Shown here piece by piece: positions 1 to 52,710 of a stretch of DNA of 64,000 nt. This DNA comes from a virus. The stretch is taken from IMG/VR virus record IMGVR_UViG_3300025889_000002, positions 1 to 64,000 of that record; one strand, written 5' to 3'. The notes beneath the pieces are model-generated. The model saw only the letters and a list, made by a program, of their open reading frames with translations. It searched no databases and was not told the origin of the DNA. A program made the translations under genes and the position numbers. Numbering within the stretch: position 1 is the first letter of the stretch; every line of letters begins with the position of its first letter.

Positions 1-116
1 GAAACTCTCAGTATTGGGTCAAATATTGATCTTGAGTGGGATATCCTACACGAGTTCTTCGAAGCACTCCCCACGCAAGGGCTTAACCGCTTCATCGGCC
101 ACTATATCAGCGGCTT
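1..116 (+). repeat. 116-bp exact repeat of 40350-40465
   Basis: gaaactctcagtattggg...cagcggctt is identical in both; first mismatch at 117 (c) versus 40466 (t). Confidence 0.95.
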
Positions 117-432
117 CGATCTTCGCTTTATCCTGAACCGCGCTATCGTCCTTGGCGTCCAGTTGCCGCCTAGCGTCATGTTCCCTCGCGAAATTAAGCC
201 GTGGTCGGATAACGTGTTCGACACCATGGTCGCATGGGCAGGACCGAAAGACCGGATCAGCCTCGACAATCTTTGCAAGGCCCTCGGCATTCCCGGCAAG
301 GATGGCTTCGACGGCTCGATGGTGGCTGAAGCATGGGCGAACGGTGAGCATGAACGTATAGCCGCTTATTGCAAAAGCGACATAGAGAGGGTAAGGGCTG
401 TTTACAGAAAATTTCAAGCGGTTGGCTACTAA
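1..432 (+). CDS. 3'-5' exonuclease (DnaQ/PolB-exo-like), 3' part, truncated by window start
   Basis: Homologous to the complete copy at 40110-40781 (GHYISGFDLRF, DTM, YCKSD). Confidence 0.8.
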   Translation, partial: ETLSIGSNIDLEWDILHEFFEALPTQGLNRFIGHYISGFDLRFILNRAIVLGVQLPPSVMFPREIKPWSDNVFDTMVAWAGPKDRISLDNLCKALGIPGKDGFDGSMVAEAWANGEHERIAAYCKSDIERVRAVYRKFQAVGY

Positions 433-977
433 TGGAAATCTGGAAAACAATTCCTGAATTTGAGGGCCTTTATGAGGCAAGTAATTTTGGCAACATCCGC
501 AGCCTAGACCGCTGGCATGAGGGAGTTTTTGGAAGATCTAAAAAGGTTATGCGAAAGCGTTGGCCGGGAAGGCCGATCCAGCCCTATGTCAACAAGGAGC
601 GTGGTGGTTATCGTTACGTAAACCTGCACAAAGAGAAGTCGCAGCATATGAGGCGAGTTGCCCGAATGGTGGCTTCGGCTTTTTTGGGGCCGTGTCCAGA
701 AGGGAAAGTGGTTTGCCACAACAATGGCATTCCCCACGATGATCGCCTTGAGAACTTGAGATACGATACCCCTAAGGCCAATAACGCGGACCAGATAAAG
801 CACGGGACTGCCATTTTGGGCGAGCGCAGTCCTAATTGCAAAATTAGCGACAATGACGTTCGCTTTATCCGTCGCAGCAAGCTTTCCCCTAGGATTTTGG
901 CAGAGCGTTTTGGCGTTCATCCCAACCACATAACCAACATCCGGTGTCGCCTTAAGCGCGCCAGAGTGGAGGATTAA
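432..977 (+). CDS. NUMOD4-HNH homing endonuclease, absent from unit B
   Basis: MEIWKTIPEFEGLYEASNFGNIRS (NUMOD4) and CHNNGIPHDDRLENL (HNH); start overlaps the exo stop (TAATG). Confidence 0.85.
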   Translation: MEIWKTIPEFEGLYEASNFGNIRSLDRWHEGVFGRSKKVMRKRWPGRPIQPYVNKERGGYRYVNLHKEKSQHMRRVARMVASAFLGPCPEGKVVCHNNGIPHDDRLENLRYDTPKANNADQIKHGTAILGERSPNCKISDNDVRFIRRSKLSPRILAERFGVHPNHITNIRCRLKRARVED

Positions 978-979
978 TC

Positions 980-1564
980 ATGAGCAAAGCAATCATCACC
1001 GCGCTGGCGAAGGTTCTGCCTACGCTTGAGAATGCCAAGAAGAACGCGGCCAACCCGCACTTCAAAAGCAAGTATGCCAACCTATCGGCAGTCATGGAGG
1101 CTGTCGAGCCGATCAAGGCGCACGGTCTCTGGTATCGCCAGCAATCCCACGACAAGCCCGATGGAGCATGTATCGAAACCATCTACATGCACGAAAGCGG
1201 CGAGGAAATGAGCGCGGGCCTGACGTTCGTGAAGGCGGACAAGCAAAACGCGCAGGGCTTTGGATCCGCAATGACCTATGCGCGGCGCTATAGCCTGCAA
1301 ACGGCGTTCGGTCTGGATGCCGAGGATGATGATGGAAACGCTGCTAGCGCACCGAAGCAACATCCTGCACCCAAGGTCGAAACAATCACCGACGCCCAGC
1401 GCGAAGAACTCATGCTGCTGTGTGAGAGCCTCAATTTCCCAGTTGACCGGGTTCTTACAGCGAAAAAGATAGCAGACCTTAGCGATTTGCCCGCGACAAG
1501 TTTTAAAGGGGCAATGAAATGGATTGGCGACGAGGCCAAGAAGATGGAGAATAATAATGCTTAG
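980..1564 (+). CDS. erf: ERF-family ssDNA annealing protein
   Basis: [34 protein letters not shown] motifs. Confidence 0.9.
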   Translation: MSKAIITALAKVLPTLENAKKNAANPHFKSKYANLSAVMEAVEPIKAHGLWYRQQSHDKPDGACIETIYMHESGEEMSAGLTFVKADKQNAQGFGSAMTYARRYSLQTAFGLDAEDDDGNAASAPKQHPAPKVETITDAQREELMLLCESLNFPVDRVLTAKKIADLSDLPATSFKGAMKWIGDEAKKMENNNA

Positions 1565-1946
1565 AACATTCGCAGCGGGCCGACTTGGCCAAGACGCAAA
1601 GCACACCACAACGCAAAGCGGCACGGATATTTGCCGTTTCTCGCTCGCCACCGATGTAGGGTATGGTGAAAACAAGCAAACCATCTGGTTGGACGTTTCC
1701 AAGTTCGGCAAGGGCGCTGAAGGTCTGGCGCGCATCCTGCGCAAAGGTTCGGCTGTTGCCGTCACTGGCGAACTCTCAACGCGGGAATACGAAGGCAAGA
1801 CGTATCTACAATGCAAAGCTGACGACGTTACGATCCTGAACACTCCCGGCGATGGACGCGGTGAGCGCAAGCAATCGTATGACAGCGGCAATCAAGGTGG
1901 TGGCTGGGGCAATGACGGCCAGGACGACGGATACGCACCTTTCTAG
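1557..1946 (+). CDS. ssb: Single-stranded DNA-binding protein
   Basis: GRLGQDA, FSLAT, LRKGSAVAVTGEL; Gly-rich tail ending DDGYAPF. Confidence 0.9.
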   Translation: MLRTFAAGRLGQDAKHTTTQSGTDICRFSLATDVGYGENKQTIWLDVSKFGKGAEGLARILRKGSAVAVTGELSTREYEGKTYLQCKADDVTILNTPGDGRGERKQSYDSGNQGGGWGNDGQDDGYAPF

Positions 1947-2020
1947 TTACGGTCAGGCAATATCGAATACGGTTGCCTAGTGGAAGCTACGCGTCGGGCC
2001 GTAGCCGTGAAAAGCCCGAC
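1947..2020 (+). ncRNA. Conserved hairpin plus H-type pseudoknot downstream of ssb
   Basis: S1 gctacg/cgtagc and S2 gtcgggc/gcccgac; each stem shows a compensatory change versus the copy at 41762-41834. Confidence 0.75.
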
Positions 2021-2037
2021 AATTTCAACCAAGGAGA

Positions 2038-2334
2038 ATGACGATGTTTATACCCGATAAAGCTAATGATGTTGAACTTGCTGACGGCAGCTGGCTGGCT
2101 GCAACTCAGATATTCGAGATGCAAAACGACACTGGGCCTGAATGTTGCGGCACACTAGGCTTTGCAATGGGGACTGCCATGGCCTTGGGAAATATCGCCG
2201 CAGCCTATGTGACGGGTGCCACCCCTAAACAGAAGAAAGACTTTCTGAAAATAATCCAGCGCACGGTTAAAGACTCATTCGACGAACCCATTACCACGGC
2301 GACCATCCGTGGTGTGGATGGTGTAACTCACTAA
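2038..2334 (+). CDS. Hypothetical protein
   Basis: AAGGAG RBS; coupled to the next gene. Confidence 0.65.
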   Translation: MTMFIPDKANDVELADGSWLAATQIFEMQNDTGPECCGTLGFAMGTAMALGNIAAAYVTGATPKQKKDFLKIIQRTVKDSFDEPITTATIRGVDGVTH

Positions 2335-2654
2335 TGCCCAAGGTCAATCACAACCGCATACGCCAGAAGTACAGCGCCAAGCCTACGGAGCGTGAACGTC
2401 AGTATCACCGCTGGTGCATCGATAACTTCCCATGCGCGTGCGGTTGTGGCTGTCCTTCAGAGATTGCGCACCACGTTCTCTCATCCATGCCGGAAAAGCG
2501 GTGGCGGCGCGATCATGAAGTGGTTGTTCCGCTCACTGCCGCCCACCATTTTGACCTGCACCTTGGCAATGCCCGCAAGATCGAGGCGGAATGGGGTGTG
2601 CCAGAGCGCGCGGTGGAACTGCGCAAGCGAGCTTACGAGTGCTATGTGTTATGA
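2334..2654 (+). CDS. DUF968-like Cys/His (HNHc-like) protein
   Basis: PCACGC, AHH, VVPLTAAHH; same position as 41855-42196. Confidence 0.55.
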   Translation: MPKVNHNRIRQKYSAKPTERERQYHRWCIDNFPCACGCGCPSEIAHHVLSSMPEKRWRRDHEVVVPLTAAHHFDLHLGNARKIEAEWGVPERAVELRKRAYECYVL

Positions 2655-3040
2655 GCCGCACGATATTCCTGATCGGAGAAAGTCAGCGCGACTATGCCAA
2701 GCGGTCAATTGATGAAGCCCCTGCGGACTATGTGTGCAAGATTGCCAAGGCTACCAGGAGCGACCGTCAGAACCGGAAAATGTGGGCGATGATTAAGGAC
2801 ATGTGCCAGCAGATCGAGGGCATGAACCGTTTTACCGCCGATCAAGTCAAGCTGCAATTCCTGAACGCTTTAGGCGTGGAAATGACTTTCCTGCCAGAGC
2901 TGGATGGGCAAGGTATGTTCCCGGTCGGGATGCGCAGTTCCACACTAACCAAAGAGCAATTTGCCGGACTGATAACGCTTATGCTCGCATACGGCGACAA
3001 GCATGAGGTTCGGTGGAGTAAAGAAAGTTTAGAGCCATGA
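2651..3040 (+). CDS. ninB: NinB-family recombination protein
   Basis: RSDRQNRKMWAMI and GMRSSTLTKEQFAGLI...AYG motifs. Confidence 0.8.
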   Translation: MSRTIFLIGESQRDYAKRSIDEAPADYVCKIAKATRSDRQNRKMWAMIKDMCQQIEGMNRFTADQVKLQFLNALGVEMTFLPELDGQGMFPVGMRSSTLTKEQFAGLITLMLAYGDKHEVRWSKESLEP

Positions 3041-3630
3041 AAGTTCTCATAGCCTGCGAATATAGCGCCGTTGTGCGCGATGCCTTCCGCGCCCGCGGCT
3101 TCGACGCTTGGAGTTGCGACCTGTTGCCGTGTGAGCGCGATCCGCAATGGCATATCCAAGGCGATGCACTTTCGATCCTTGGCGATGGATGGGATATGAT
3201 GATCGCTCACCCCCCCTGCACGCATTTGGCAGTCAGCGGAGCGCGCTGGTTCAAGGACAAGCAGGAAGAACAGGCTGAAGCGCTTGAGTTCGTCCGTCTC
3301 CTGCTAAACGCACCGATCCGGCATATCGCTCTGGAAAATCCGGTCAGCATCATTTCAAGCCATATCCGCAAGCCTGACTGTACCTATCAGCCATGGGAGC
3401 ATGGCCACGGCGAGGTGAAGCGCACCTGTCTGTGGCTTAAGAACCTGCCCACCCTGAAGCCCTCTAATATTGTCGAGGGCCGGGAGGCTAAGGTGCACAA
3501 GATGCCGCCTGGACCTGATCGCTGGAAAGAGCGGTCCCGCACTCCTGTTGGCGTTGCTAAAGCCATGGCTGAGCAATGGGGCGACTACCTTCTATCACTT
3601 CCGAAACACAAGGAGGCAATCAATGCTTGA
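3037..3630 (+). CDS. Phage DNA cytosine-methyltransferase-like protein
   Basis: VLIACEYS, AHPPC, LENPV, RWKERSRT motifs. Confidence 0.75.
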   Translation: MKVLIACEYSAVVRDAFRARGFDAWSCDLLPCERDPQWHIQGDALSILGDGWDMMIAHPPCTHLAVSGARWFKDKQEEQAEALEFVRLLLNAPIRHIALENPVSIISSHIRKPDCTYQPWEHGHGEVKRTCLWLKNLPTLKPSNIVEGREAKVHKMPPGPDRWKERSRTPVGVAKAMAEQWGDYLLSLPKHKEAINA

Positions 3631-3944
3631 AGACCCATCTGTAACATACGCCCGCGCCTGCAATGACGCTCAATGGGCGGCCAAACTCGAATCCCGTCTG
3701 GCAGCACGCAAGCAAGCCCGACTTAACGGCGAAACACAGGTATCAGCGCATCGCCGCACTCTTTCAGTAAAGTTCTCGAAATGACCCCTTCCGAATATCT
3801 CCACCTAAAAGCCACGACATTGCGCAAGGCAGCTAACAATCCCCGCAAGGGATATGGCGAGGAAACGCGCGATTGCATGATCTACGCAGCCACACAGCTT
3901 GAAGTGACGGCAGACGAGATCCACGCCAAGTTTAACGAGGAAGA

Positions 3945-4667
3945 ATGATGCTTGCCATCGATTTTGCAGAGCCAGAGCCATCGGAAGACTTTGCCGAATA
4001 TCGCGACACCATGCGCCGCAGTAGCCAAATGTATCTAACCGCGATCCAGACCGCCAAGGGGACACATTGGCTTTGCGGCCATCATCGCGGGCCGGATAAC
4101 ACGCACACCATTGCCGGAAAGACACAATGCAAAAAGTGCCGACGCGATAAAATCAACAGTGCGCTGAAGGTGATTGCGCAGCGTCAAGCTGTAGAGCGCG
4201 CCCTTGCTGTTCATGCTGCCGAGATGGAAGATCGGCGCATTGAGAGGCGTAAAGGCGAAAAGCAGCGCGAGGCCGAACGCTACAGGCGCGAGCGAGAGGA
4301 GAAGCGCCGGTTGCGCGATCAGGCCAACCGTAGAGCCAATGAAATACGTGCTTCTATTGTAGAGCGCACGATCATACACCCTGCGAATGGCCGCATTCCT
4401 TTGCATGATTTAATCCAGGCTGTTGCTACTGCGTTCGGCATTGACCCTGAGGGTGTGCGCAGCAAGGCGAGGGGGAAGAATTTCCTATATGCCCGATGCG
4501 TGCTTGTTAAAATCCTGCAAGAGCGGGGCGCGTCATATCCCGTCATTGGAAGGCTGCTAGGTGGCCGCGATCATAGCACCACGATCAACGCCTATCACAT
4601 GTTCCCGACATATTGCCGGAAAGACCCGCGTGTCGCCAGCACATACGAAAAGTATAAGGACCGCTAA
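3945..4667 (+). CDS. Protein with Cys/His knuckle, coiled coil and C-terminal DnaA domain IV-like HTH
   Basis: SYPVIGRLLGGRDHSTTINA resembles the DnaA C-terminal signature. Confidence 0.75.
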   Translation: MMLAIDFAEPEPSEDFAEYRDTMRRSSQMYLTAIQTAKGTHWLCGHHRGPDNTHTIAGKTQCKKCRRDKINSALKVIAQRQAVERALAVHAAEMEDRRIERRKGEKQREAERYRREREEKRRLRDQANRRANEIRASIVERTIIHPANGRIPLHDLIQAVATAFGIDPEGVRSKARGKNFLYARCVLVKILQERGASYPVIGRLLGGRDHSTTINAYHMFPTYCRKDPRVASTYEKYKDR

Positions 4668-5008
4668 TGATCCTGCTACCTTACCCTGCGCCGCCCCTGT
4701 GGCCGAACAAGCGCGCCCATTGGGCCAAGAAAGCCCGCGAGACAAAGAAGCATCGTGCATGGGCGCATGGGGCCGCACTGGCGGCAAAGCCCTCTGCTGA
4801 CGGGGAGCCTATTCCGGTGCGAATCACGCTTTACCCAAAACCCAAAGGGCCAGCCCCGGACAAAGACAACGTTGTTGCCAGCGCAAAGGCGTATCTCGAT
4901 GGAATAGCTGAAGCGATGGGAATCAATGATCGTGCGTTCGCCTCGCCAATTGTTCGCATATCGGGAGAGCGACTTAGCCAGATGGGGATTGAAATTGGAA
5001 AAGCCTAA
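4667..5008 (+). CDS. RusA-like Holliday junction resolvase
   Basis: LPYPAPPLWPN, PDKDN, KAYLDGIA, GIND. Confidence 0.75.
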   Translation: MILLPYPAPPLWPNKRAHWAKKARETKKHRAWAHGAALAAKPSADGEPIPVRITLYPKPKGPAPDKDNVVASAKAYLDGIAEAMGINDRAFASPIVRISGERLSQMGIEIGKA

Positions 5009-8468: not shown

Positions 8469-8544
8469 TTGACCGATGGTCACAGGCGGGCTAGAAGGTT
8501 TTCATCGAAAGGGGCAATGCTCCACCAACGAAAGGGAAAATGAA
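8469..8544 (+). promoter_or_regulatory. Cassette promoter with operator-like palindrome and conserved leader
   Basis: TTGACC-N17-TAGAAG; TGACC-GAT-GGTCA overlaps the -35; leader matches 48595-48628. Confidence 0.65.
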
Positions 8545-8748
8545 ATGGCTACTTTTCAGAAAAACGGTCGGACCTACACCATTACCGGAACGCAGGATAA
8601 TTCGGCAACTGCCGCACACCTGCGCGGGCGCGGATTTGATGGGGTGGTTTATTTTGCTGAATCGCAGCCGGTAGGTCGCCAGCGTAAACCTTTCGTTGGT
8701 ATGTTTTACCGCTCGGTTAAGACCGGCCAGTTCCACAGCGCAATCTAA
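8545..8748 (+). CDS. Small hypothetical cargo protein
   Basis: AAGGGA RBS directly after the promoter. Confidence 0.65.
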   Translation: MATFQKNGRTYTITGTQDNSATAAHLRGRGFDGVVYFAESQPVGRQRKPFVGMFYRSVKTGQFHSAI

Positions 8749-8758
8749 GGATCAGGCA

Positions 8759-8932
8759 ATGAATAAACTCGACTTTCTTACATCCCTCCGCGGCAAAGCC
8801 CTCAGCGAGGGAAATGCTGACGCATGGCGCGATTACGACATGCAAATCCGCGCCGAACTGGCTTATCTTCGTGCAGAGGTTAAGCTTGGCCGTCGCGATG
8901 CAGAAACATTCCGAATGGTCGCTCGCGCATGA
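8759..8932 (+). CDS. Small hypothetical cargo protein
   Basis: AAGGA RBS; ATGA overlap with the HTH gene. Confidence 0.6.
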   Translation: MNKLDFLTSLRGKALSEGNADAWRDYDMQIRAELAYLRAEVKLGRRDAETFRMVARA

Positions 8933-9129
8933 CCCCCAAACAATTCCGTAAAATCCGCGAGCGGGCTGGTTATAGTGTTGACCAGCTTGCCGCAGTTCTC
9001 CGCATTAGCGACGGTCGATCCGTAAGGCGTTGGGAAGATGGAAGCCGCAAGGTATCCGGCCCCGTGTCTCTGATAATGTCGGCTTTGGAGCAGGGCTTAC
9101 TTACTGGCGAAGATCTTCTAAATCTTTAA
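8929..9129 (+). CDS. XRE-type HTH regulator
   Basis: IRERAGYSVDQLAAVLRISDGRSVRRWEDG; homologue at 49032-49247. Confidence 0.85.
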   Translation: MTPKQFRKIRERAGYSVDQLAAVLRISDGRSVRRWEDGSRKVSGPVSLIMSALEQGLLTGEDLLNL

Positions 9130-9183: not shown

Positions 9184-9921
9184 ATGGAAAAATTCAAAAC
9201 CATTCCAATAGCGGAACTTAAAAAGTCTTTGGATTATAATCCTGAAACGGGAATATTCCTAAGAAAGATTGACCCGTCCGTTAGGGGGTCGCTTAGGGCA
9301 AGGTGGGGCAATAAGCCGACATCACCAAACCCAAACAAGCACGGGTATCTTCTGGTTAGTGTAGGTGCGGTGCAGTTTCTCGCCCATCGCGTGGCGTGGG
9401 CAATCCATTACGGAGAATGGCCCCAAGGGCAGATAGATCACATAAATCACTGCCGAAGCGATAACAGGATTTCCAATCTTAGGGTTGTGAATGACGCGGG
9501 AAACAAGAAGAACATGTCACTCAGGACCGATAACAAAAGTGGATGTGCTGGCGTTTCATGGCGTGAAAATAGGCAGAAGTGGCGCGCCAGAATTCATGTT
9601 GATGGCAAGGAAGTCTGCTTAGGTCATTTCGAAAATAAGGAATCCGCAATCGCAGTCAGAGCGAAGGCGTTAAAGGAATATCAATTTCACAAAAACCACG
9701 GAAACCCAAGCCATGATAACCCGCGTAACAACCGAGAACGGCCAGGATCTAGGCGAGTGGGAAACGCAGCACCCTATCCGCGCTGGCGAGGTAATCACCG
9801 ATGGCGGGCAGGAATACGAAGCCATGTTCTATCAGGGCGGTGGCTTGATTGTGAGGGAAGTATGAGCAAAGGTCTCGTGGTTTTAGCGATGCTCGCATTC
9901 CGCAAGGAACAGCAACCATGA
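9184..9921 (+). CDS. HNH-AP2 endonuclease (3' extension doubtful)
   Basis: AHRVAW, IDHINHCRSDNRISNLR, NKSGCAGVSW...KWRARI. Confidence 0.85.
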   Translation: MEKFKTIPIAELKKSLDYNPETGIFLRKIDPSVRGSLRARWGNKPTSPNPNKHGYLLVSVGAVQFLAHRVAWAIHYGEWPQGQIDHINHCRSDNRISNLRVVNDAGNKKNMSLRTDNKSGCAGVSWRENRQKWRARIHVDGKEVCLGHFENKESAIAVRAKALKEYQFHKNHGNPSHDNPRNNRERPGSRRVGNAAPYPRWRGNHRWRAGIRSHVLSGRWLDCEGSMSKGLVVLAMLAFRKEQQP

Positions 9922-10277
9922 GCCTCTACAGCGAACTTTCGTGGGCCGGCCCTAACTTCTACGGCCAGACATTCACCGCCCACCACTTCCACCACTGCGC
10001 AGCCCGTGACGAGCATATGCGCCTAGAACGCGCCCGAAGGATGGCGAGAGCAGCAGTCAGGAGTGTTAGGCATGGGTGATAGAGTAGAACGAAAGCTAAC
10101 CCTTTATCGCGATGATAGCACCGCGCAGGTTGTCTACGATCGCGTGAAGACATGGTTCTGGACGGCAGGGAATACCGTGCTGGTCGTGAGTCGTTATGAC
10201 ACCGATACGGGAGGCGAGCATCATTACATTCATTGGCCACGCGAACGTTTCTGCTGGTTTAAGGACGAACCCCGCCA

Positions 10278-10612
10278 TGACTAAAACAAGCGACCAAGAG
10301 GTGATCCAGGCGGATCGTGAGGTAGTGGATCGCATCATGTGCGATGACCCCGACGCGCCCGACTTCGACTACGCATATCGCGAGGTTGCAGCCCACCGCA
10401 TGACAGAGCGCGCGGCAATTGTGGCGTGGTTGAGGGCGGAGGCTCGTTCGAACTACAACACCGCATTTGAGTGCTGGAAGGAATCGCGACAGACCGGGGA
10501 CGCCGGCACTGGTTCAATCGGTGATAGCGCTTTCCACGAATATCAGATCAAGGATCGCATCATAGACGCCATCGAACGCGGTGACCACACGGAGACAAGC
10601 CATGAGCAATGA
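10278..10612 (+). CDS. Hypothetical protein, mosaic with 49429-49722
   Basis: N-terminal half is shared with the unit B homologue. Confidence 0.7.
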
Positions 10613-10880
10613 GATCGACTGGACTAAGCCGCGAACGCATAGCCTCTAACGGTGTAGCATCCATAACCGATGTCAGGGAGTGTGAGGCAATCGTGGCAGA
10701 GCGGAGGCAGGACCCGTTGGTGGAAGCTATAGCGGAACTGGTTCACGATGCCATGATGTGGGCCGTTGGCTGTGGTGGCGAGCCTAGAAATTGGGCGGGT
10801 GGCAAAAGCTTGGGTGAGGAAATGGCGCGGGAATACGCCATGGAGATCATCAAGAAACCGAAGATCGTAGAGGCATAACA

Positions 10881-11375
10881 ATGACCGAGATAGAGTGGAG
10901 CGCACCGCTTGATTTGAGTGAATTGCGAGAAATACTTAATGACTTTTTCCCTAACGATTTGCGCGTTTACGATTCTTGCCGAGGTCGCGGCGAGAGAGTG
11001 TTCGCGGATAGTATGCGGTATAGAGGTTATGAAATCCGCAACCGCACCACAAAGCCCGCCAATGCGCCTTCGCCGGAGTTGGTGGAGAGCCTTAAATCCA
11101 TGCGCGATCATTTAGATTTAGCGCGCAACAGGATTAGGGCCACCGCAATCAATTTCTCAGGCCTTGATGAACCGCGCTCCTATGAAGCATCGTATTGGGC
11201 GAATGAGGCAGACGAGCATGTGAAACAGTTTGACGCCATCCTCGCAGAACTAGAGCCGGTCGATCCTGACGAAGCATTGATTGACCAAGTTCTAGGCGAC
11301 CACGGCGGATTCGATGCTCGCACGGAAGCCATGCTTCGAGACGCAATCAAGCGCGTTAGAGCGGAGAAGGGGTGA
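10881..11375 (+). CDS. Mosaic hypothetical protein
   Basis: Shares only linkers and ends with 50092-50586. Confidence 0.7.
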   Translation: MTEIEWSAPLDLSELREILNDFFPNDLRVYDSCRGRGERVFADSMRYRGYEIRNRTTKPANAPSPELVESLKSMRDHLDLARNRIRATAINFSGLDEPRSYEASYWANEADEHVKQFDAILAELEPVDPDEALIDQVLGDHGGFDARTEAMLRDAIKRVRAEKG

Positions 11376-11560
11376 TGGAGACTTATTCAAACCAAGGTCC
11401 GCAGTGCCCTTATTGCGATAGGCAATATACGGCAGATGATTCGTTCTATTACGATGAAAGCGGATATACCGAAGAAACGTGCGACGAATGCGGCAAGACA
11501 TTTGACGTAGAGGTTTGCCATACTGTTGCATGGTCATGTGTGCAGCGTGATGAGGAATAA
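11372..11560 (+). CDS. Small zinc-ribbon protein
   Basis: CPYC...CDECG. Confidence 0.6.
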   Translation: MMETYSNQGPQCPYCDRQYTADDSFYYDESGYTEETCDECGKTFDVEVCHTVAWSCVQRDEE

Positions 11561-11589
11561 CCGCCGCACTACCCCTAACCACTCCCCAC

Positions 11590-11618
11590 TTGCCCAGACA
11601 GACAATAAAGGCTAGATA
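11590..11618 (+). promoter_or_regulatory. Putative late promoter upstream of terminase
   Basis: TTGCCC-N17-TAGATA, boxes conserved at 50764-50792. Confidence 0.65.
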
Positions 11619-11624
11619 GAAACC

Positions 11625-11699
11625 ATGAACATCGAACGCGCAATCGGTCTGGTGATACTTGTCCTGCTGGTGATCTTCCTGGCGCGGCTGGTTGTATGA
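11625..11699 (+). CDS. 24-aa hydrophobic peptide, probably leaderless
   Basis: MNIERAIGLVILVLLVIFLARLVV; ATG 6 nt after the -10 box. Confidence 0.45.
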   Translation: MNIERAIGLVILVLLVIFLARLVV

Positions 11700-11726
11700 C
11701 TTTGAATTTTTTCAATGGAAATCAAG

Positions 11727-12032
11727 ATGGCGCACGGGGGTAAGCGGCCCGGTGCCGGTAGGCCTAAAGGGGCTAAGGACAAGCTGACACGCGAAGCGGG
11801 TGCCAGTCTTGCTGAGATAGCACGCGAGCACACTGAGTCTGCCATTGAGACACTTGTGCAGATTGCGGTATCTGGAGAGAGTGAAGCAGCTAGAGTAAGT
11901 GCGGCCAACGCGCTGCTTGATCGTGGCTATGGCAGGGCTCCGCAGTCAATCGAACACACAGGCGAGGTCACATTCAGCAAAGCCACTGAACTGTCAGACG
12001 ACGATCTAGCCAAGCTGGCAACAGGTCAGTGA
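11727..12032 (+). CDS. terS: Terminase small subunit (putative)
   Basis: GGKRPGAGRPKG, AANALLDRGYG; immediately upstream of terL. Confidence 0.75.
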   Translation: MAHGGKRPGAGRPKGAKDKLTREAGASLAEIAREHTESAIETLVQIAVSGESEAARVSAANALLDRGYGRAPQSIEHTGEVTFSKATELSDDDLAKLATGQ

Positions 12033-13582
12033 CCACGATCACGCCGCAGGAGGCCGCAACAGAACTCCTGCGCAGACGACGCGCCAGAACCAACCTTGTC
12101 GATTACGCCCGCTACATCGACGTTCCCGGCGCGCCAGTTACAGAAGACGATCCCGACTGCGAGACGTTCAAGCCCGTCGAGACTGTTCTAGCCGAGCATC
12201 ACGAAATTATCCTCAACGCCACGCAGCGCTGCATAGAGCGTCATCGCGGGCGCACGATGCTGTTCCTGCCCCCTGGTAGCGCCAAGTCGACGTATGCCAC
12301 TGTTGTGTCGTCCACATGGGCTTTAGGTAGGCAGCCCGGGTACAAGGTTATCAATGTCAGTTATGCCAGCGATATAGCAAAGAAGTTTGGCCGCCGAATG
12401 AGGGCGATAACCAAGCAGAAGAAGTTCGAGAACCTTTTTGCCACTAGCCTTTCAAAAGAAAGTAGCGCTGCTGACGAATGGGCCTTGTTGAATGAATCTG
12501 AATTCATGGCTGGCGGTATTCTGTCTGGCATAACCGGGAACCGTGCAGATTTCGTATGTATTGACGACCCCATTCGCGGGCGACGTGACGCGGATTCGGA
12601 AACAATTCGGAAGAACACCCGAGATGCATACGATGAGGATGTTCTAACCCGCTTGAAGCCTGGGGGTAGCGTAATGATAACGCAAACCAGATGGCACATG
12701 GATGACCTTGCTGGTTCAATATTACCTGATGATTGGAAGGGTGAAAGCGGCATGATTGAATGCCGTGATGGCGAGACGTGGGAAGTTATCTGCATTCCTG
12801 CCAAGGCTGAGCGGCACGATGACATGCTTGGCCGATTGCCCGGGGAATACATCTGGCCAGAATGGTTCGGCCCTGAGCATTGGGCACCTTTCGAGCGCAT
12901 GCCAAGGACGTGGAATGCCCTCTACCAGCAACGCCCTGCCCCAGACACAGGCGATTACTTCAAGCGTGAATGGATCATCGAGACGGACAACGCGCCTCCG
13001 CGCGAAACCATGCAGATATTCGGCGCGTCCGATTATGCCGTGACCGCTGACGGCGGCGACTACACCGTTCATGTCGTGATGGGCATCGATCACACTGGCC
13101 GCTTGTGGCTGCTGGACCTATGGCGGCAACAGGCATCGTCCGATGTATGGGTGGATAGCCTGTGTTCGCTGGTAAAGCAATGGCGACCGATAGGCTGGGC
13201 TGAGGAAACGGGTCAGATCAAGTCCGGCGTCGGCCCGTTCCTGGTCAAGCGCATGCTTGAAACGGAAGCTTACGTGGCGCGCGAGCAATTCCCGACGCGA
13301 GGGGATAAGGCGGTGCGCGCACAGTCTATCCGTGGCCGCATGGCAATGCAGGGGCTGCATGTGCCAAGAGGTGCGCCATGGCTACCTGCGCTGATCAGTG
13401 AAATGATGTCTTTCCCGGTCGGTTCGCATGACGATCAGGTCGATGCGCTTGGATTGGCGGGCCAGCTCATTGCAAAAATGGATTTTGGTGCTACACCTGA
13501 AGACGCTAAACCGAAACCGGGAGCGCCGCCGCGTGTTGTTGCGGATGGTGTCATTGCTCCACCACTTAGGGCGCGTAGATGA
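12029..13582 (+). CDS. terL: Terminase large subunit
   Basis: PPGSAKS Walker A, CIDDP Walker B, QTRWH, HDDQVDA. Confidence 0.95.
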   Translation: MTTITPQEAATELLRRRRARTNLVDYARYIDVPGAPVTEDDPDCETFKPVETVLAEHHEIILNATQRCIERHRGRTMLFLPPGSAKSTYATVVSSTWALGRQPGYKVINVSYASDIAKKFGRRMRAITKQKKFENLFATSLSKESSAADEWALLNESEFMAGGILSGITGNRADFVCIDDPIRGRRDADSETIRKNTRDAYDEDVLTRLKPGGSVMITQTRWHMDDLAGSILPDDWKGESGMIECRDGETWEVICIPAKAERHDDMLGRLPGEYIWPEWFGPEHWAPFERMPRTWNALYQQRPAPDTGDYFKREWIIETDNAPPRETMQIFGASDYAVTADGGDYTVHVVMGIDHTGRLWLLDLWRQQASSDVWVDSLCSLVKQWRPIGWAEETGQIKSGVGPFLVKRMLETEAYVAREQFPTRGDKAVRAQSIRGRMAMQGLHVPRGAPWLPALISEMMSFPVGSHDDQVDALGLAGQLIAKMDFGATPEDAKPKPGAPPRVVADGVIAPPLRARR

Positions 13583-15879
13583 ACGAATCCCGCAACTTTA
13601 CCGGAACGACCGAAGAAGCGCGCGAGAAAGCATCTGCGCCAATCCTTCAGGCGCTCAAGCGTTCACAGGATGCGTTTCGGGAGTGGGACGCCACCTGCCA
13701 CGGTATCGATGACCTCTATTCGCGCCACGGCTCAAGCTACGAGCGCCTGCTTGATATGGCCGCTTATGGCGACGGCGAGATGGATCTGTTCTGGTCCTCG
13801 TCCGAAGTTCTCAAGCCTGCTGTTTATGCCCGCCCGCCTGTCCCGGCCATTGCGCCGATCTTCAAGGATGGTGGCCCGGTAAAGTCCACTACTGCCGAAT
13901 TGCTGGAGCGTGCGGCTGTATCGACGTTCAAGCAGACCGGCATCGATGATGTCATGCAGTCGGTGCGTGATGATCTGTTGTTCTCTGGGCGCGGCGTCAT
14001 GTGGCTGCGTTACGAAAGCGAAGGCGGCAAGAAGGTCTGTGTCGAACACCTGGACCGTGATGACTTCCTGCATGATGTGGCACGCAAGTGGTCTGGTGTT
14101 GGCTGGGCTGCTGGCGGCTTCTGGATGTCCGAAGACGAGATCAAGGAGCGGTTCAAAGGCATTACGCAGGAGCAGATCGATCAGATCGAGTTCATGGAAT
14201 GCCGCGACGAAGCGAACCGGCAAGAAAAGGGTATGTCCCCCAAGGCGCGCGTGTGGGAAGTCTGGCACCGCGCGAACAACCGCGTCTATTGGGTAACGGA
14301 AGGGCTGGACGTTTATCTTGACGACAGCGAACCGCACCTGAAGCTTGAGGGCTTCTTTCCTTGCCCGCGTCCGGCTTATGGCACCTTGCAGCGTCGTTCG
14401 CTTATTCCTGTGCCTGACTTCGAACGCTACGGCGGCATGTTCGCCAAGATCAACACGCTGACGGCCCGCATTTACCTGTTGCTCGATCAGGTGAAGATGA
14501 AGGGTATTATCCCTGGCGGTGGGGATATAGCATCGGCCATTGAATCGCTGATGAAGTCCGAGGACGACAGCATCCTCATTGCGGTTCCCGGCGCTGCACT
14601 GATGGAAGGCGCGGCTGCGGTTGTGTGGATGCCATTGCAGGAACTTGCAGCGGCTATCACCGCGCTGATCGATGCTCGCCGTCAGCTTATCGAAGACTTC
14701 TATCAGCTTTCCGGCATATCCGACATCATGCGCGGTGCTACCGAGGCAGAGGAAACCCTTGGCGCGCAGCAGTTGAAGGCGCAGTTCGGTTCGGTGCGTG
14801 TTCGCCAGAAGATCGACGAGATGCAGCGGATCGCGGCAGAGGCGGTTAAGATTGCCTCCGAGATACTGGCTGAGAAATTCGACGGCAAGACGTTGCTGGA
14901 GATGTCGCAGATGGATTTGCCGACGCGGGCTGACATCAAGAAGCGCATCAAGGAAATCGAAGACGCGGCTGAGAAAGAACTCAAGGCGCTTGAAAAGAAC
15001 GTCATGCAGGCCGGGGGCAATATGGACCCTGAACAAGCGCAGCAGATGTTCCAGCAACAACAGCAGGCCATAGTCGGCAAATATGGTCCGATGCTGGAGG
15101 AAGCTGAAAACCTCGTTCCGATCGACGACGTGGTTGACCTGTTGCGGGATGATCGTGCGCGTTCGTTTGCTTTCGAGATTGAAACCGACAGCACAATCAT
15201 GGTCGACGAGATTGCGGAAAAGAGCGCCCGCAATGAGTTCATGGGTGTATTCAACAACGCCACGCAGGGCCTTATGGGTCTGGCCGGTATGGGTGAACCG
15301 GGGGCAAAGCTTGCCGGTGAACTGATGAAGTTCGTTCTGGCTCCCTATCGTGTCGGCAGACAGCTTGACGGGGCGATTGATGACTTTGTGAAGCAGGCCC
15401 CTGCTATGCTGGCCTCTCAGCAAGGTGAGGGTGACGAGCAAGGTGTTGCGGCACTGGCTGAGGCTGAGATGGAAAAGGCCAAGGCCCAGATGGCCAAGGT
15501 CGAAGCCGATAGCGCGCTCAAACAGGCTGAAAACCAGCGCAAGTTTGCCGAATTGCAGGTTAAGGCGCAGAAGGATCAATCCGACGCACAAGCAAAGATG
15601 GCCAAGCTGGAGCAGGATGCCAACGCCAACGCAATCAAGGCGCAGGAAGCTTTGGCCAAGGTGGATCTACTGCGCGCCCAGACCATGAAGGCGATGGCCG
15701 AAGCAGGTATAGCCATAGACACGGCGCAATTGGACGAGTTCAAGTCCCTTGCAGACATCGACATCAAGCAAAGCCAGGAGCAGCGCGCTATCGTGAACGA
15801 TCAGCGCCAAGCAGAGCGTGCCGACCGGCAGGAAGCGCGCGAAGTGATGCAGCCTGCCGAACGGGAGTTCCCGCAATGA
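13579..15879 (+). CDS. Portal protein with long C-terminal coiled coil
   Basis: Follows terL; SGISDIMRG, ETLGAQQLK motifs. Confidence 0.85.
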   Translation: MNESRNFTGTTEEAREKASAPILQALKRSQDAFREWDATCHGIDDLYSRHGSSYERLLDMAAYGDGEMDLFWSSSEVLKPAVYARPPVPAIAPIFKDGGPVKSTTAELLERAAVSTFKQTGIDDVMQSVRDDLLFSGRGVMWLRYESEGGKKVCVEHLDRDDFLHDVARKWSGVGWAAGGFWMSEDEIKERFKGITQEQIDQIEFMECRDEANRQEKGMSPKARVWEVWHRANNRVYWVTEGLDVYLDDSEPHLKLEGFFPCPRPAYGTLQRRSLIPVPDFERYGGMFAKINTLTARIYLLLDQVKMKGIIPGGGDIASAIESLMKSEDDSILIAVPGAALMEGAAAVVWMPLQELAAAITALIDARRQLIEDFYQLSGISDIMRGATEAEETLGAQQLKAQFGSVRVRQKIDEMQRIAAEAVKIASEILAEKFDGKTLLEMSQMDLPTRADIKKRIKEIEDAAEKELKALEKNVMQAGGNMDPEQAQQMFQQQQQAIVGKYGPMLEEAENLVPIDDVVDLLRDDRARSFAFEIETDSTIMVDEIAEKSARNEFMGVFNNATQGLMGLAGMGEPGAKLAGELMKFVLAPYRVGRQLDGAIDDFVKQAPAMLASQQGEGDEQGVAALAEAEMEKAKAQMAKVEADSALKQAENQRKFAELQVKAQKDQSDAQAKMAKLEQDANANAIKAQEALAKVDLLRAQTMKAMAEAGIAIDTAQLDEFKSLADIDIKQSQEQRAIVNDQRQAERADRQEAREVMQPAEREFPQ

Positions 15880-16055
15880 GCGGCTTCCCTGTAACCATAG
15901 TCGACAGCGGTGGTTATCCAGTCACCCATGTTCCTGCTGACACAACGCCTGTCGCGGCTGCGCCCGCTAACGTGGTTGATGAAGGCGGCTATCCGATCAC
16001 GATTGTTGAAAGCGGCGGCCTACCGCTGACCCTTATTGGCTACACACCGGAGTAA
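15876..16055 (+). CDS. Small protein with V-x-x-GG(Y/L)P repeats
   Basis: Homologue at 55026-55181. Confidence 0.7.
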   Translation: MSGFPVTIVDSGGYPVTHVPADTTPVAAAPANVVDEGGYPITIVESGGLPLTLIGYTPE

Positions 16056-16060
16056 ATGAA

Positions 16061-16315
16061 ATGGCAGATGCAAACAGATTGATTGGCTTGGGCGTCCCCG
16101 AACCAACCGCCGTGGAAATGGCCGCGCAGATCGAAGCGCAGGAAGGCAATGCCGACCGTTTGAAGGAATTGGGCGTTGTGCCTGAACTGGCAACAGAACT
16201 GGCCGGTCAGATTGACGCTGAGGGCACTACCAACGCGCCGAAGCTGGTCGACTACAGCATGATACCCGACATTGCGGTGGAGGTCGTGGCGCAGATCGAG
16301 GCGGATAGGGCTTAG
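16061..16315 (+). CDS. Small three-repeat helical protein
   Basis: L..LG....A.E.A.QI.A repeated three times; homologue at 55194-55451. Confidence 0.75.
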   Translation: MADANRLIGLGVPEPTAVEMAAQIEAQEGNADRLKELGVVPELATELAGQIDAEGTTNAPKLVDYSMIPDIAVEVVAQIEADRA

Positions 16316-16348
16316 CAAGCTTGTGACGGGGAAACGAAAGGAACTGAC

Positions 16349-16504
16349 ATGACTACGAAGAAAGAGCAGGAAAAGATCGACAAGGACGACAACGGCCTGT
16401 CGGATCGTCTGAAGACCATGGACCCGCGCTTCGATGAGAAGGGCAAGGATGTCGAAACCGAGAAGAAAGAGGGCCAGACCTCGACTGCGAGCAAGTCGAA
16501 GTAA
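16349..16504 (+). CDS. Small charged protein
   Basis: AAGGA RBS; homologue at 55584-55733. Confidence 0.7.
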   Translation: MTTKKEQEKIDKDDNGLSDRLKTMDPRFDEKGKDVETEKKEGQTSTASKSK

Positions 16505-16887
16505 TGCCTCTTTACGATTTCCGATGCGAGAATGAACACCGCTTTGAGCGGTTCGTCTCGCTTGCGTCCTTCGGGGATCGTCAGACATGCGAGTGCGGGG
16601 CTGGCGCCAAACGACTTATCAGCGCGCCTAGAGTGATTTCGGACAGCATGGAGCCGACACTTGGGCCTGATGGGAAGATGCATACCAGTCTCGCCTCGTA
16701 TCGTCATTCCTGCACTGCCGAGGGCAACCCGCAGGGCGAAACATATCTAGAGCTTGGGCGGGAAGAATTGCCTGAGTTCAAAGCGCCGGAGTTCGACCGA
16801 CGCAAGAGGCGTGAGGACATCCGCGCCGGGATCCAGGATGTCAAAGAGGGCCGCGTTCCGCCCGTTGTTGTAGGGGATCTACCATGA
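16504..16887 (+). CDS. FmdB-like zinc-ribbon protein
   Basis: MPLYDFRC..H.FE...CECG...RLISAP. Confidence 0.8.
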   Translation: MPLYDFRCENEHRFERFVSLASFGDRQTCECGAGAKRLISAPRVISDSMEPTLGPDGKMHTSLASYRHSCTAEGNPQGETYLELGREELPEFKAPEFDRRKRREDIRAGIQDVKEGRVPPVVVGDLP

Positions 16888-18080
16888 CTGAATTAGCCGA
16901 AGCAGAAAGCAACTCGACAGTCCTTGAGGAAAACGTGCCTGCGGGCGTGTCCGGTGGCGGTGAGCCTAAACTGGAGCCTGAAGAACCGACATCGTTGCGC
17001 GACACGCTTGCCGACGAACTCAAGAAGGATGCCGAAAGCCAGAAGGAGCCTGCCAAGGATGACGCCTACGCCGCCAAGGGAGCCGATGGGGACGAAGATG
17101 GCGAGGCCGAAGGAAAGGCGGACAAGGCCGATAAAGACGACGCCAAACCCAAGGAAAAGGCAGAGGGCGACGTAAAGCCTGCCAAGGAGCGGGCTGAAGA
17201 CGGCAAGTTCAAGGCGAAAGAAGCGAAAGAGGCAAAAGACGCCAAGGAAGCGGAAGGCGAAAAGCCGGGGCATTACCAGGCACCTGAGAAATTCCTGCCC
17301 GATGCGCGGGAAAAGTGGCTCAATGTGCCCAAGCCGGTGCAGCGCGACATCGACAACATGGCGCGCGAGCACGAAGCCGAGGTGACGCAGCTTCGTGAAG
17401 CAACGCAGCGGTATGAAAGCATCCGTCAATTCGATGAGTTGGCGCAAAGCAATGGCCGCGACCTGACAGAAAGCCTGACGAAGCTCAACGAGATCGAGAA
17501 CGTCATGCAGCAGAATCCCTATGCGGGTCTGAACATGATTCTGCAGGAAATCGGGCCGCGCAAGCCGGATGGCTCGCCTGTGTCGCTTTACGAAGTGGCG
17601 CAGTTCGTGGCGCAGCAGGGGCCGGACAAGTGGCAGCAGATGGTATCGGTGCAGCCGCAACAGCAGCAGCCGCAGGAAAACCCCGAGGTTGCGCAGTTGA
17701 AGCAGCAGATTGCGCAGATGCAGGTCCAGCAGACCGCGCAGAGCGTGATCGAACCATTCAAGGCAGAGCATCCCCGTTACGATGAATTGAAGGGGGATAT
17801 TGCAATGTTCCTGAAGTCTGGTAGGATACCAGCTAGCTTGAGCGCGGCAGACCGTTTGGAGGCTGCTTATTACATGGCTGAGAGGTTAAACCCTCCTTCC
17901 GATGTGCAGGACGCCCCGACGAAGCCAAGCCCTGACGCAGACCGCCGCGTTGACGACCTCAGCGGCACGAAATCCATCAAGTCCGCGCCGGGTTCTGCAT
18001 CTCCTGATATGGCTCCTCAGCGCGGTGGTTCCATCGCCGACATTCTTCGCGAAGAAGCACGAAGATCACGTCGAGCATAA
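16884..18080 (+). CDS. Capsid scaffolding protein (putative)
   Basis: Acidic low-complexity N-terminus, RAEDGKF motif, position directly before the capsid gene. Confidence 0.7.
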   Translation: MTELAEAESNSTVLEENVPAGVSGGGEPKLEPEEPTSLRDTLADELKKDAESQKEPAKDDAYAAKGADGDEDGEAEGKADKADKDDAKPKEKAEGDVKPAKERAEDGKFKAKEAKEAKDAKEAEGEKPGHYQAPEKFLPDAREKWLNVPKPVQRDIDNMAREHEAEVTQLREATQRYESIRQFDELAQSNGRDLTESLTKLNEIENVMQQNPYAGLNMILQEIGPRKPDGSPVSLYEVAQFVAQQGPDKWQQMVSVQPQQQQPQENPEVAQLKQQIAQMQVQQTAQSVIEPFKAEHPRYDELKGDIAMFLKSGRIPASLSAADRLEAAYYMAERLNPPSDVQDAPTKPSPDADRRVDDLSGTKSIKSAPGSASPDMAPQRGGSIADILREEARRSRRA

Positions 18081-18095
18081 TTGAGGGGTAGCGCA

Positions 18096-19106
18096 ATGGC
18101 TATCGTTTCAGATCGTAACTACGGGCAGATTCTGACTGCCTCCGTTGCTCGTCGTTCGTCCGACGTGCAAAATATCGTTTACAACTCCACTCCCCTGACA
18201 GCGATCCTTAAGGACATGGGGAAGATCAAGCAGAAGCGCGCGGGCGGGCCGGAACTTCGTGTCCCGATCATGTTCGACAAGCTCGAAGCACAGTGGTTCA
18301 CTGGCTACGACAAGCTGCAGATCACTCCCAAGGAACTGCTGAACAGCGCGGTCTACAACTGGTCGCGTTGCGTTGGTATGTTCTCGCTCACCGGCACTGA
18401 ACTGCTTTACAACAGCGGTGAAGACGAAGTTATCGACCTCATGGAAACCTACATGGATGCTGCTGAGCAGTCCGTGAAGGAAGCCTTCGAGGAAGGTCTC
18501 GTCGGTGATGGTACGGCAGACGGTGGTCGCCAGATGACGGGCCTTGGTTCGGCGGTTCCCATCGTCACCAATACCGGCGTATATGGCGGAATCGACCGTG
18601 CAACGGTTCCTAACTGGCGCACGTCCACCTTCGACATCCCGGCTGGCGATGTTGCGGGCTACACCACTTGGGACAGCACCACGGCACGGGCGATCATCGA
18701 AAAGATCACCCTGCAGCGTTCGCGCGGTGGCCGTTATCCTGACCTGATCATTGCCGACGCCAATTCGTATGCTGCCATCTCGGCTGCATTCGTGGCACAC
18801 CAGCGTCTCGCATCGGAACGTCTGGCACGCCTTGGCTTCACCGGCATGACGATCATCACCCCGGCAGGCCCGGTCGACGTGATCGCAGCAGGCGGTATCG
18901 GCAATGTCATGCCCGCAGATACGTTCTTCGGCATCGATACGCAGGGTATGGCGATCTACACGTTCCCCGGTCAGGAATTCGTTCCTTTCCATCCGGGCAA
19001 CGGCATGCGTCCTATCAATCAGGATGCGGTGGCTCAGGGTGTGGTCTGGACAGGGCAGCTTGTCCTTGAAAACCCGCTCTTCACCTATCGCGCCATCACG
19101 GCCTAA
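18096..19106 (+). CDS. Major capsid protein
   Basis: ~336 aa; GGPELRVPI, GDGTADGGRQMTGL, YGGIDR; strongly biased codons. Confidence 0.9.
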   Translation: MAIVSDRNYGQILTASVARRSSDVQNIVYNSTPLTAILKDMGKIKQKRAGGPELRVPIMFDKLEAQWFTGYDKLQITPKELLNSAVYNWSRCVGMFSLTGTELLYNSGEDEVIDLMETYMDAAEQSVKEAFEEGLVGDGTADGGRQMTGLGSAVPIVTNTGVYGGIDRATVPNWRTSTFDIPAGDVAGYTTWDSTTARAIIEKITLQRSRGGRYPDLIIADANSYAAISAAFVAHQRLASERLARLGFTGMTIITPAGPVDVIAAGGIGNVMPADTFFGIDTQGMAIYTFPGQEFVPFHPGNGMRPINQDAVAQGVVWTGQLVLENPLFTYRAITA

Positions 19107-19121
19107 AGAGAGGACTGAAAC

Positions 19122-19439: not shown

Positions 19440-19444
19440 TTCGG

Positions 19445-19470: not shown

Positions 19471-19492
19471 CCTCTAGTTGGAGCGTCCATCC

Positions 19493-40781: not shown

Positions 40782-40782
40782 T

Positions 40783-52704: not shown

Positions 52705-52710
52705 GGCATA

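Follow-up and report, generated by a model that had tools for sequence, protein, structure and literature searches.

Two phage cassettes with a promoter repeat, a covarying leader hairpin and a terminal helix-turn-helix gene, laid out like anti-CRISPR-associated operons

Analysis of a 64,000-nucleotide stretch of viral DNA (positions 1-64000 of IMG/VR record IMGVR_UViG_3300025889_000002, here called the window) showed two short operons, cassette A (8469-9129) and cassette B (48540-49247). In each, a sigma70-like promoter with an inverted repeat (IR1) is followed by a leader hairpin (IR2), a Shine-Dalgarno (SD) site, small cargo genes and a terminal gene for a helix-turn-helix (HTH) protein. 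We lean towards reading both, from their sequence and from related viral loci, as autorepressed burst-expression cassettes resembling those of the anti-CRISPR-associated (Aca) regulators, with a leader hairpin that acts at the RNA level. All the elements that an earlier note had described in the two cassettes were found where it had placed them (Table 1). The note had the promoter overlapped by an inverted repeat, and IR1 overlaps the -35 hexamer in cassette A and fills the spacer in cassette B and in about 28 related promoters. As the note had claimed, the cargo genes (A1 and A2, B1 and B2) are mutually unrelated, the terminal HTH genes are homologous, and the MSLYSELSW gene lies after cassette A and before cassette B. 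The two HTH proteins are 53% identical.

The note had also described a common leader hairpin. The exact leader pattern was present at only two sites in the window, the leaders of cassettes A and B. A covariance model (R1), built from 27 leaders, was run over the whole 80.5-kb record and gave exactly two matches, both in the cassettes (E 6e-11 and 7e-9). The hairpin of cassette B was the top R1 match of all (39.9 bits, E 2e-10), while that of cassette A scored 33.8 bits (E 2e-8). Rfam covariance models gave no relevant match around either cassette at E <= 5, and a strict terminator scan around the cassettes did not flag the promoter-leaders. Single-sequence folding of the two leaders gave z values of -0.2 and -1.5, no better than shuffles. 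Because this folding and the single-site promoter scan described below were weak, the case for more than chance rests on comparison.

Related loci were retrieved with an HTH-homologue profile from a 12-sequence subset, the 61-sequence alignment being too diverse. The profile retrieved 45 viral loci and one cultured phage, Pseudanabaena phage Pan3, and HTH scans of genome contigs gave no match. A promoter-hairpin-SD frame was found upstream of the HTH homologues in about 35 viral contigs plus Pan3, with cargo that was nearly all different, and the complete set of -35, IR1, -10, hairpin, SD site, cargo and HTH gene was present in about 30 operons. In most close homologues the 5' part of the frame consists of a TGCATTTTCC-like box, a TTGAC-type -35 and a spacer IR1 of the form GGRMM-NWT-KKYCC, which abuts a TATAA/CATAAG/TAGAA-type -10. 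About 13-17 nt with CGAAC or CAGCAAC then lead to the 3' part, which is made of a 5-bp G+C hairpin (IR2), [AG]CC, an SD site and ATG. The IR1 of cassette B fits this family consensus and is the sole such site near a promoter in the window, and its TGCATTTTCC-like upstream element is conserved in most related promoters. Cassette A has 5/5 Watson-Crick pairs in IR1, and its -10 position is occupied in related loci by a TAGAA[GC] or TATAA-type hexamer. Its sister locus L001 retains GACC/GGTC around another centre (agc), has a 4-bp hairpin variant, and is 81% identical to cassette A over 135 columns of promoter and leader and 74% identical in the HTH.

The hairpin and the HTH gene were linked in both directions. 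A promoter-only set, selected by -35, spacer and -10 and blind to the hairpin, contained 18 distinct promoters, and 16 of these had a perfect hairpin starting 13-17 nt past the -10; by our own arithmetic, the chance of an all-G+C 5-bp stem in such an interval is about 0.2%. In the reverse search, IMG/VR was scanned with three leader-only patterns, and 13 of the 14 loci with enough downstream sequence had an HTH gene on the same strand, 0.2-1.9 kb further on. The exception was L007, with no HTH within 1.9 kb downstream, which may represent regulation in trans or a degenerate cassette. The same contig carries two hairpin-ACC-SD units ahead of small genes (L007:6450-7320), the first of which resembles the L009 cargo by eye in its N-terminal pattern, a resemblance that BLAST did not support. 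Locus L026 has a second full promoter with IR1 and hairpin that begins inside the last codons of the HTH gene, and by analogy with reports on Aca11 and Aca14 its regulator may also control the neighbouring operon. Marine loci L043-L052, with a more distant HTH subfamily (MTPTEFKQARRKLGLSATQLGHILNSDPRTVRRWESEGDARP...), gave weaker model matches on the opposite strand (E 1e-4 to 1e-2).

Covariation of IR2 was counted on 27 leaders with 3-nt loops, as MAFFT had put the stems with 4-5-nt loops out of register. Both sides change in three of the five pairs (12 cells). The covariation score was 0.304, compared with 0.066 ± 0.024 in shuffles, and was reached by none of 500 shuffles; slid controls, with the partner moved by 1-3 columns, gave pairing of only 50-59%. 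The stem types were GGGGC/GCCCC, GGGCC/GGCCC, GGGCA/TGCCC and GGGAC/GTCCC, with CGGGC/GCCCG in Pan3, and the stems with 4-5-nt loops were GGGCG/CGCCC and CGGGG/CCCCG. The loops vary freely (AAT, ACT, GCT, ACC, TTT, CAC, TTCG and others). Across all sites only three pairs were not Watson-Crick, and all three were sense-strand G.U pairs (cassette A, L009 and L024). Across 30 operons, IR2 had 149 Watson-Crick pairs, 1 G.U and no mismatch, while IR1 had 129 Watson-Crick, 6 G.U and 15 mismatches in the same operons (150 positions), figures to be read with the fact that most IR2 sites were first gathered by a perfect-stem filter and that the promoter-only set is the unbiased sample. Mismatches in IR1 and none in IR2 would be expected of an operator recognised one half-site at a time in double-stranded DNA (IR1) and of an element that has to fold (IR2). 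IR2 is a likely functional RNA structure on the comparative sequence data, and autorepression by the HTH through IR1 is judged, on the same data, similarly likely.

Two other identities were considered for the hairpin and rejected. A mimic of the tRNA acceptor (stem plus ACCA) was dismissed on the varying 3' tail, which reads GCC, ACT or ATCC at other loci, and a terminator was dismissed on the lack of a U-run.

IR1 and IR2 share the common form GGRNN-N3-5-NNYCC. The two are near-identical in L011, L015 and L017 (GGACCAATGG[CT]CC and GGGCCAATGGCCC), in L035 (GGGGCgtgatGCCCC and GGGGCgctGCCCC) and in L046. The hairpin-ACC-SD unit is repeated before internal cistrons in L020 and L024 (three units), L035, L009 and L039, and L014 has one such unit immediately before the HTH gene. 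Locus L035 also has a promoter, IR1 (GGGGCtcgatGCCCC) and hairpin directly before an HTH frame with no cargo (2430-2715). In the open reading frame (ORF) walk this HTH region came out as two short frames (2436-2579 and 2576-2713), and the L035 copy may therefore be frameshifted.

The HTH proteins were compared with known families. An exhaustive profile search gave 2,511 cluster representatives at E <= 1e-3, the top-scoring homologues being mostly 55-90 aa and the named ones XRE or YiaG. Pfam matches of the HTHs were to HTH_31 and HTH_3, at sub-threshold level only; HTH A matched HTH_31 at E 5e-5, below the Pfam cutoff, and phrog_14076 ("transcriptional regulator") at E 7e-8. The best solved-structure match of the family profile was Aca3 (E 4e-6, and 3.5e-7 with a wider profile), and lower matches were C.BclI (E 6e-5), PezA, HipB, Aca2 (3e-4) and Aca1 (5e-3). 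By its sequence matches, the HTH is an XRE domain of the MqsA/HigA/Aca3 neighbourhood.

The nearest layout in the literature is that of the dual DNA/RNA operons. In Aca1, Aca2, Aca10 and Aca12 operons a DNA repeat sits on the promoter, transcription starts 10-15 nt further on, and the 5' untranslated region (UTR) opens with an RNA hairpin; Aca2 uses its hairpins to repress translation, and the Aca1 hairpin is bound by Aca1 (Feussner et al., NAR 2026, PMC13551039). The cassettes are like these operons (Aca2 of Pectobacterium phage ZF40, and Aca1, Aca10 and Aca12) in having small same-strand cargo and then a small HTH gene, a strong promoter with an inverted repeat, and a covarying hairpin that directly follows the predicted transcription start and closely precedes the first ribosome-binding site. 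They are also alike in a hairpin that resembles the DNA operator, in extra motifs in or beside the operons, and in highly variable cargo that sometimes includes DNA-modification enzymes. A 5'-UTR hairpin with covariation, the mark of Aca1/Aca2-type RNA control, was found here, its place in the UTR following from the predicted start. In contrast to the characterised operons, the cassette elements are far shorter, with a single 5-bp stem and a 13-15-nt operator, none of the cargo is a known anti-CRISPR (Acr), and binding by the cassette HTH is predicted. The HTH also differs from Aca2, as it is a 55-70-aa COG2944/YiaG-like XRE domain whereas Aca2 has the DUF1870 fold.

Aca3 of Neisseria meningitidis (70 aa, PDB 9vt3) is a similar-sized single XRE HTH domain and shares the motif TP..[LF]K..R...GL[ST]Q...A........[ST]VRRWE with the cassette HTHs. 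Aca3 is an autorepressor of its acr promoter (PMC9410906) for which no significant RNA motif was reported (PMC13551039). In Neisseria it is linked to AcrIIC genes, whereas the cassette phage, whose closest terminase relatives are in Brucella phages and a Microcystis phage, has a covarying hairpin. Among GenBank phages, the HTH was present in Pan3 alone (ON968454.1, Pan3_63/Pan3_62; 52% identity). The frame of Pan3 is as in the cassettes, with TGCATTTTGTGC, TTGACG, GGACAttttGCCCC, ATATCA, CGGGCgatGCCCG-ACC, an SD site, a 66-aa cargo and the HTH. It differs in that both genes are annotated as hypothetical, the single cargo is unrelated to A1, A2, B1 and B2, and the outer hairpin pair is flipped (C-G).

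The guilt-by-association mining that the earlier note had proposed yielded 45 HTH-anchored viral loci, about 30 full operons and about 55 cargo proteins, nearly all of them unrelated to one another. Searches of Pfam, PHROGs, NCBIfam and PADLOC gave no family match for A1, A2, B1 or B2 and almost none for the other cargo, and a tblastn search of GenBank phages with A2, B1 and B2 was likewise negative. The chosen start codon of A1 is supported by a 78%-identical 67-aa homologue. The AlphaFold2 (AF2) model of A1 is beta-rich (predicted local distance difference test, pLDDT, 86) and had no significant match in the PDB by Foldseek (best E 0.5). B1 is 56% identical to the first cargo of L012 (2122-2295), where the second cargo differs. 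B2 has 14 homologue clusters, and its AF2 model (pLDDT 94) shows a beta-sheet and a C-terminal helix; Foldseek against PDB and BFVD and a wide VIA-align search gave nothing significant (best E 0.03-0.3, best Z 4.7). Weak rows for B2 with a Cas/anti-Cas complex (Z 4.1) and AcrIF (Z 2.8-2.9) were set aside as noise level and are not evidence.

Other loci showed how the cargo is exchanged. L001 carries a protein of about 80 aa and a phrog_757 DNA methyltransferase (E 9e-69) instead of A1 and A2, and L023 has the same pair. With its frame kept and its cargo changed, L001 shows directly that cargo is replaced while the frame stays fixed. L035 and L038 have a DUF3489 protein in common. The methyltransferase cargo of L001 and L023 is the sole functional hint and points toward restriction evasion; consistent with it, two N6/N4 DNA methyltransferases precede cassette A and a methyltransferase lies downstream of the HTH in L014. 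A weak PAPS-reductase-like ORF (L001:951-1739; PF01507, E 0.005) was seen just upstream of the methyltransferase-carrying sister cassette, and PAPS-reductase-like genes have been reported in phage anti-defence hotspots (PMC13551039). For the cargo, counter-defence or host takeover is the most plausible function, and a role in counter-defence specifically is put forward tentatively.

In the proposed mechanism, each cassette would be an autoregulated accessory-gene operon of a podovirus-like phage of about 40 kb. The promoter would be fired by host sigma70 RNA polymerase, and the transcript would begin a few nt 5' of the 5-bp G+C hairpin, which stands 8-10 nt upstream of the ribosome-binding site. 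The small cargo and the terminal HTH would then be co-translated across overlapping stop and start codons (ATGA and TGATG within the cassettes). The HTH, probably as a dimer, would close the promoter on IR1 in or next to the -35/-10 spacer, and would probably also bind the look-alike IR2 as an RNA hairpin and damp translation. Taken by itself, binding of IR2 by the HTH is judged, from the resemblance of IR1 to IR2, a little less likely than not. The outcome would be a short early burst of cargo protein with two brakes, one on DNA and one on RNA, as proposed from the match of the layout to the documented Aca1, Aca2, Aca10 and Aca12 operons. The promoter-leader and the HTH gene would serve as constant flanks between which cargo is exchanged by recombination.

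Several results weigh against this reading. Neither cassette promoter was flagged by a strict sigma70 scan, which the missing final T of the two -10 hexamers explains. The complete pairing of IR2 is partly by construction, on account of the perfect-stem filter, and its almost invariant outer GGG/CCC fits sequence-specific recognition but could also reflect common descent. Two of the 18 promoters in the promoter-only set (L013 and L016) have no leader hairpin, CAGCAAC running directly into the SD site; these are natural hairpin-less variants. At 13-15 nt, IR1 and IR2 are shorter than the 19-22 bp of characterised Aca operators (PMC12658196). The Aca3 alignment covers only profile positions 2-37, about 36 N-terminal residues, and the HigA2 antitoxin was matched nearly as well (E 6.8e-7 against 3.5e-7); the HTH is a generic XRE domain. 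No cargo matched an anti-defence family or a solved Acr fold (Pfam, PHROGs, NCBIfam and PADLOC, with the A1 and B2 models against PDB). B2 homologues occur in 26 other phage loci, none beside this HTH, which makes B2 a mobile accessory gene of phages, independent of the frame. The acr-aca-like reading of the earlier note thus holds for the architecture, which matches the Aca1/2/10/12 layout (PMC13551039) with Aca3 as the nearest solved relative, but the HTH is not assignable to a validated Aca family, because HigA2 is about equally similar. Its proposal of the cargo as anti-defence candidates is plausible: small same-strand genes stand before an HTH gene in a viral record, though they matched no anti-CRISPR or anti-defence family or fold in the searches above.

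Part of this evidence would suit a generic early-gene or "moron" cassette, in which the HTH is a Cro- or C-like autorepressor, the hairpin is an mRNA stabiliser, translation enhancer or processing site unbound by the HTH, and the cargo serve host takeover, superinfection exclusion or another non-defence role. The lack of an anti-defence signature in the cargo (Pfam, PHROGs, PADLOC), the loci that do without the hairpin, and the relatives of B2 within ordinary small-gene runs of other phages all agree with it, as do other promoters of the second phage genome in the record that have the box, -35 and spacer repeat but no GGGNN hairpin and no HTH. Internal hairpins also stand right after stop codons, as expected of processing or stabilising elements. 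A pure stabiliser, however, should accept any G+C stem, whereas hardly any variation is seen in the outer GGG/CCC and the 3' [AG]CC; IR2 is like IR1 in form and at several loci in sequence, linkage between the hairpin and this one HTH family is tight, and the extreme turnover of cargo is typical of arms-race genes. On balance the generic cassette is somewhat unlikely. A type II toxin-antitoxin system of HigBA or MqsRA layout, with small upstream proteins as toxins and the terminal HTH as antitoxin and autorepressor, agrees with the gene order (toxin first, HTH last), with the HigA2, HipB and PezA matches of the profile and with weak NCBIfam MqsA-family matches. It is nevertheless very unlikely, for the cassettes are without a conserved toxin partner: their cargo, which range from 0 to 7 genes and in two loci include a DNA methyltransferase, change almost everywhere, and the L035 promoter and hairpin stand directly before the HTH, without cargo. 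Unlike HigA2/MqsA-type antitoxins, the HTH consists of the domain alone (55-70 aa), and no toxin-binding extension is obvious; the cargo matched no toxin family in Pfam, NCBIfam or PADLOC, and the A1 and B2 models had no significant toxin-fold match.

More improbable still is a controller (C-protein-like) system that times phage DNA-modification genes. The translational coupling of the methyltransferase to the HTH in L001 and L023, the methyltransferases flanking cassette A and L014, and the profile match to C.BclI speak for it, but methyltransferase cargo is found in only 2 of about 30 operons, the window cargo (57-71 aa) have no methyltransferase features, and no cassette holds the restriction endonuclease that would mark a restriction-modification controller. 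That the cassettes merely have a short motif in common, by chance resemblance or an assembly artefact, is extremely improbable and already contradicted by the comparative data: the frame recurs in about 35 independent contigs and in cultured Pan3, the stem covaries, and the covariance model has exactly two matches in 80.5 kb, against single-sequence folds that are no better than shuffles and a record that is an odd two-genome concatemer. The Aca-like reading of the cassettes has, in turn, a bolder form, which we regard as unlikely. In it, the GGGNN-loop-NNCCC-ACC hairpin with its SD site and small ORF would be a portable unit, stacked and swapped between promoter/operator and HTH, and the HTH, of an undescribed Aca-like family, would read one short palindrome both as promoter DNA and as RNA before each cistron, giving gene-by-gene translational control of a fast-evolving counter-defence arsenal.

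The IMG/VR record is 80,572 bp long and is classed as having direct terminal repeats. Self-comparison showed two related phage genomes of about 40.3 kb head to tail (offset about 40.3 kb, 72-96% identity), here units A and B, with matching stretches at 1-5002 and 40350-45100 and at 9917-24524 and 48343-63784. Cassettes A and B thus occupy equivalent places in two related phages. The record probably does not represent a single 80-kb phage but a chimeric circle assembled from two co-occurring strains, or else a heterodimeric concatemer. In the large terminase, identity is 71% with Microcystis phage Mwe-JY13 and 64% with the Brucella Tb/Pr phages, whose genomes are 38-41 kb.

The neighbourhoods of the two cassettes differ. 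An HNH endonuclease (PF13392 E 2e-15; phrog_99 E 3e-62) between cassette A and the MSLYSELSW gene has no counterpart at cassette B and is probably a mobile insertion of the homing type. A direct repeat, 39 bp long and perfect (48132-48170 and 49211-49249), encloses the ORF 48165-48347, the MSLYSELSW gene and cassette B. It holds the last 11 codons of HTH B, and the ORF 47980-48168 ends in the same tail, GRVRKHRAEKQ; the repeat has the look of a scar left when a module was inserted through recombination at a short linker. The TGCATTTTCC-like element also occurs at other unit-B promoters. Further promoters at 45860-45935 and 47555-47612 have a cattttcc box, a -35 and a spacer inverted repeat as in cassette B, with no GGGNN leader hairpin and no HTH ending the operon. 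Several autoregulated cassettes with differing terminal regulators may coexist.

Table 1 Features of cassettes A and B, of their surroundings and of selected related loci
Feature	Position	Strand	Remarks
Cassette A -35 hexamer, TTGACC	8469-8474	+	identical hexamer in sister locus L001
Cassette A IR1, TGACCgatGGTCA	8470-8482	+	TGACC-gat-GGTCA; overlaps -35
Cassette A -10-like hexamer, TAGAAG	8492-8497	+	17-nt spacer from -35
Cassette A hairpin IR2, GGGGCaatGCTCC	8511-8523	+	GGGGC-aat-GCTCC, one G.U pair; 13 nt past -10
ACCA after cassette A hairpin	8524-8527	+
Cassette A Shine-Dalgarno region, AAGGGAAA	8532-8539	+	conserved between loci
Cargo A1, 67 aa	8545-8748	+	no assigned function
Cargo A2, 57 aa	8759-8932	+	no assigned function; stop overlaps HTH start (ATGA)
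HTH A, 66 aa	8929-9129	+	XRE-type, putative autorepressor
HNH endonuclease	9184-9921		between cassette A and MSLYSELSW gene
MSLYSELSW gene, unit A	9918-10079		downstream of cassette A
Spacer inverted repeat of one further unit-B promoter, GTGGAATATCCAC	45877-45889
MSLYSELSW gene, unit B	48344-48505		upstream of cassette B
Cassette B upstream element, TGCATTTTCC	48540-48549	+	just 5' of -35
Cassette B -35 hexamer, TTTACA	48552-48557	+
Cassette B IR1, GGAACaatGGCCC	48562-48574	+	GGAAC-aat-GGCCC, imperfect; abuts -10
Cassette B -10-like hexamer, TAGAAC	48575-48580	+
Cassette B hairpin IR2, GGGGCactGCCCC	48595-48607	+	GGGGC-act-GCCCC; 14 nt past -10
ACCA after cassette B hairpin	through 48611	+
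Cassette B Shine-Dalgarno region, AAGGGAAA	48615-48622	+
Cargo B1, 63 aa	48629-48820	+	no assigned function
Cargo B2, 71 aa	48820-49035	+	no assigned function
HTH B, 71 aa	49032-49247	+	putative autorepressor, homologue of HTH A; start overlaps B2 stop (ATGA)
Hairpin-less promoters	L013:462-520, L016:643-700		TTGACA, GGGCCgctGGCCC, TATATA, CATCAGCAAC
Second full promoter, IR1 and hairpin	L026:2702-2774		begins inside last codons of HTH gene

The Aca-type autoregulated operon of anti-defence style, with DNA and RNA motifs, is already known. What appears new, by comparison of the sequences with Rfam and with the Aca literature examined, in neither of which it is described, is the HTH family, its 13-15-nt operator, the 5-bp covarying hairpin and the repetition of that hairpin before internal cistrons. 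If the Aca-like reading is true, a further HTH family, with an operator of its own and a new RNA motif covarying in the 5' UTR, would join the Aca-type regulators. The motif together with the HTH would be a precise handle for guilt-by-association mining, and about 55 orphan cargo would become candidate counter-defence genes. A hairpin so short, and one that recurs before internal cistrons, would offer a compact model of one HTH that reads both DNA and RNA. All this would apply to a poorly studied phage group, terminase-related to Brucella phages and to phages isolated on cyanobacteria, in which the cultured member Pan3 makes the idea testable.

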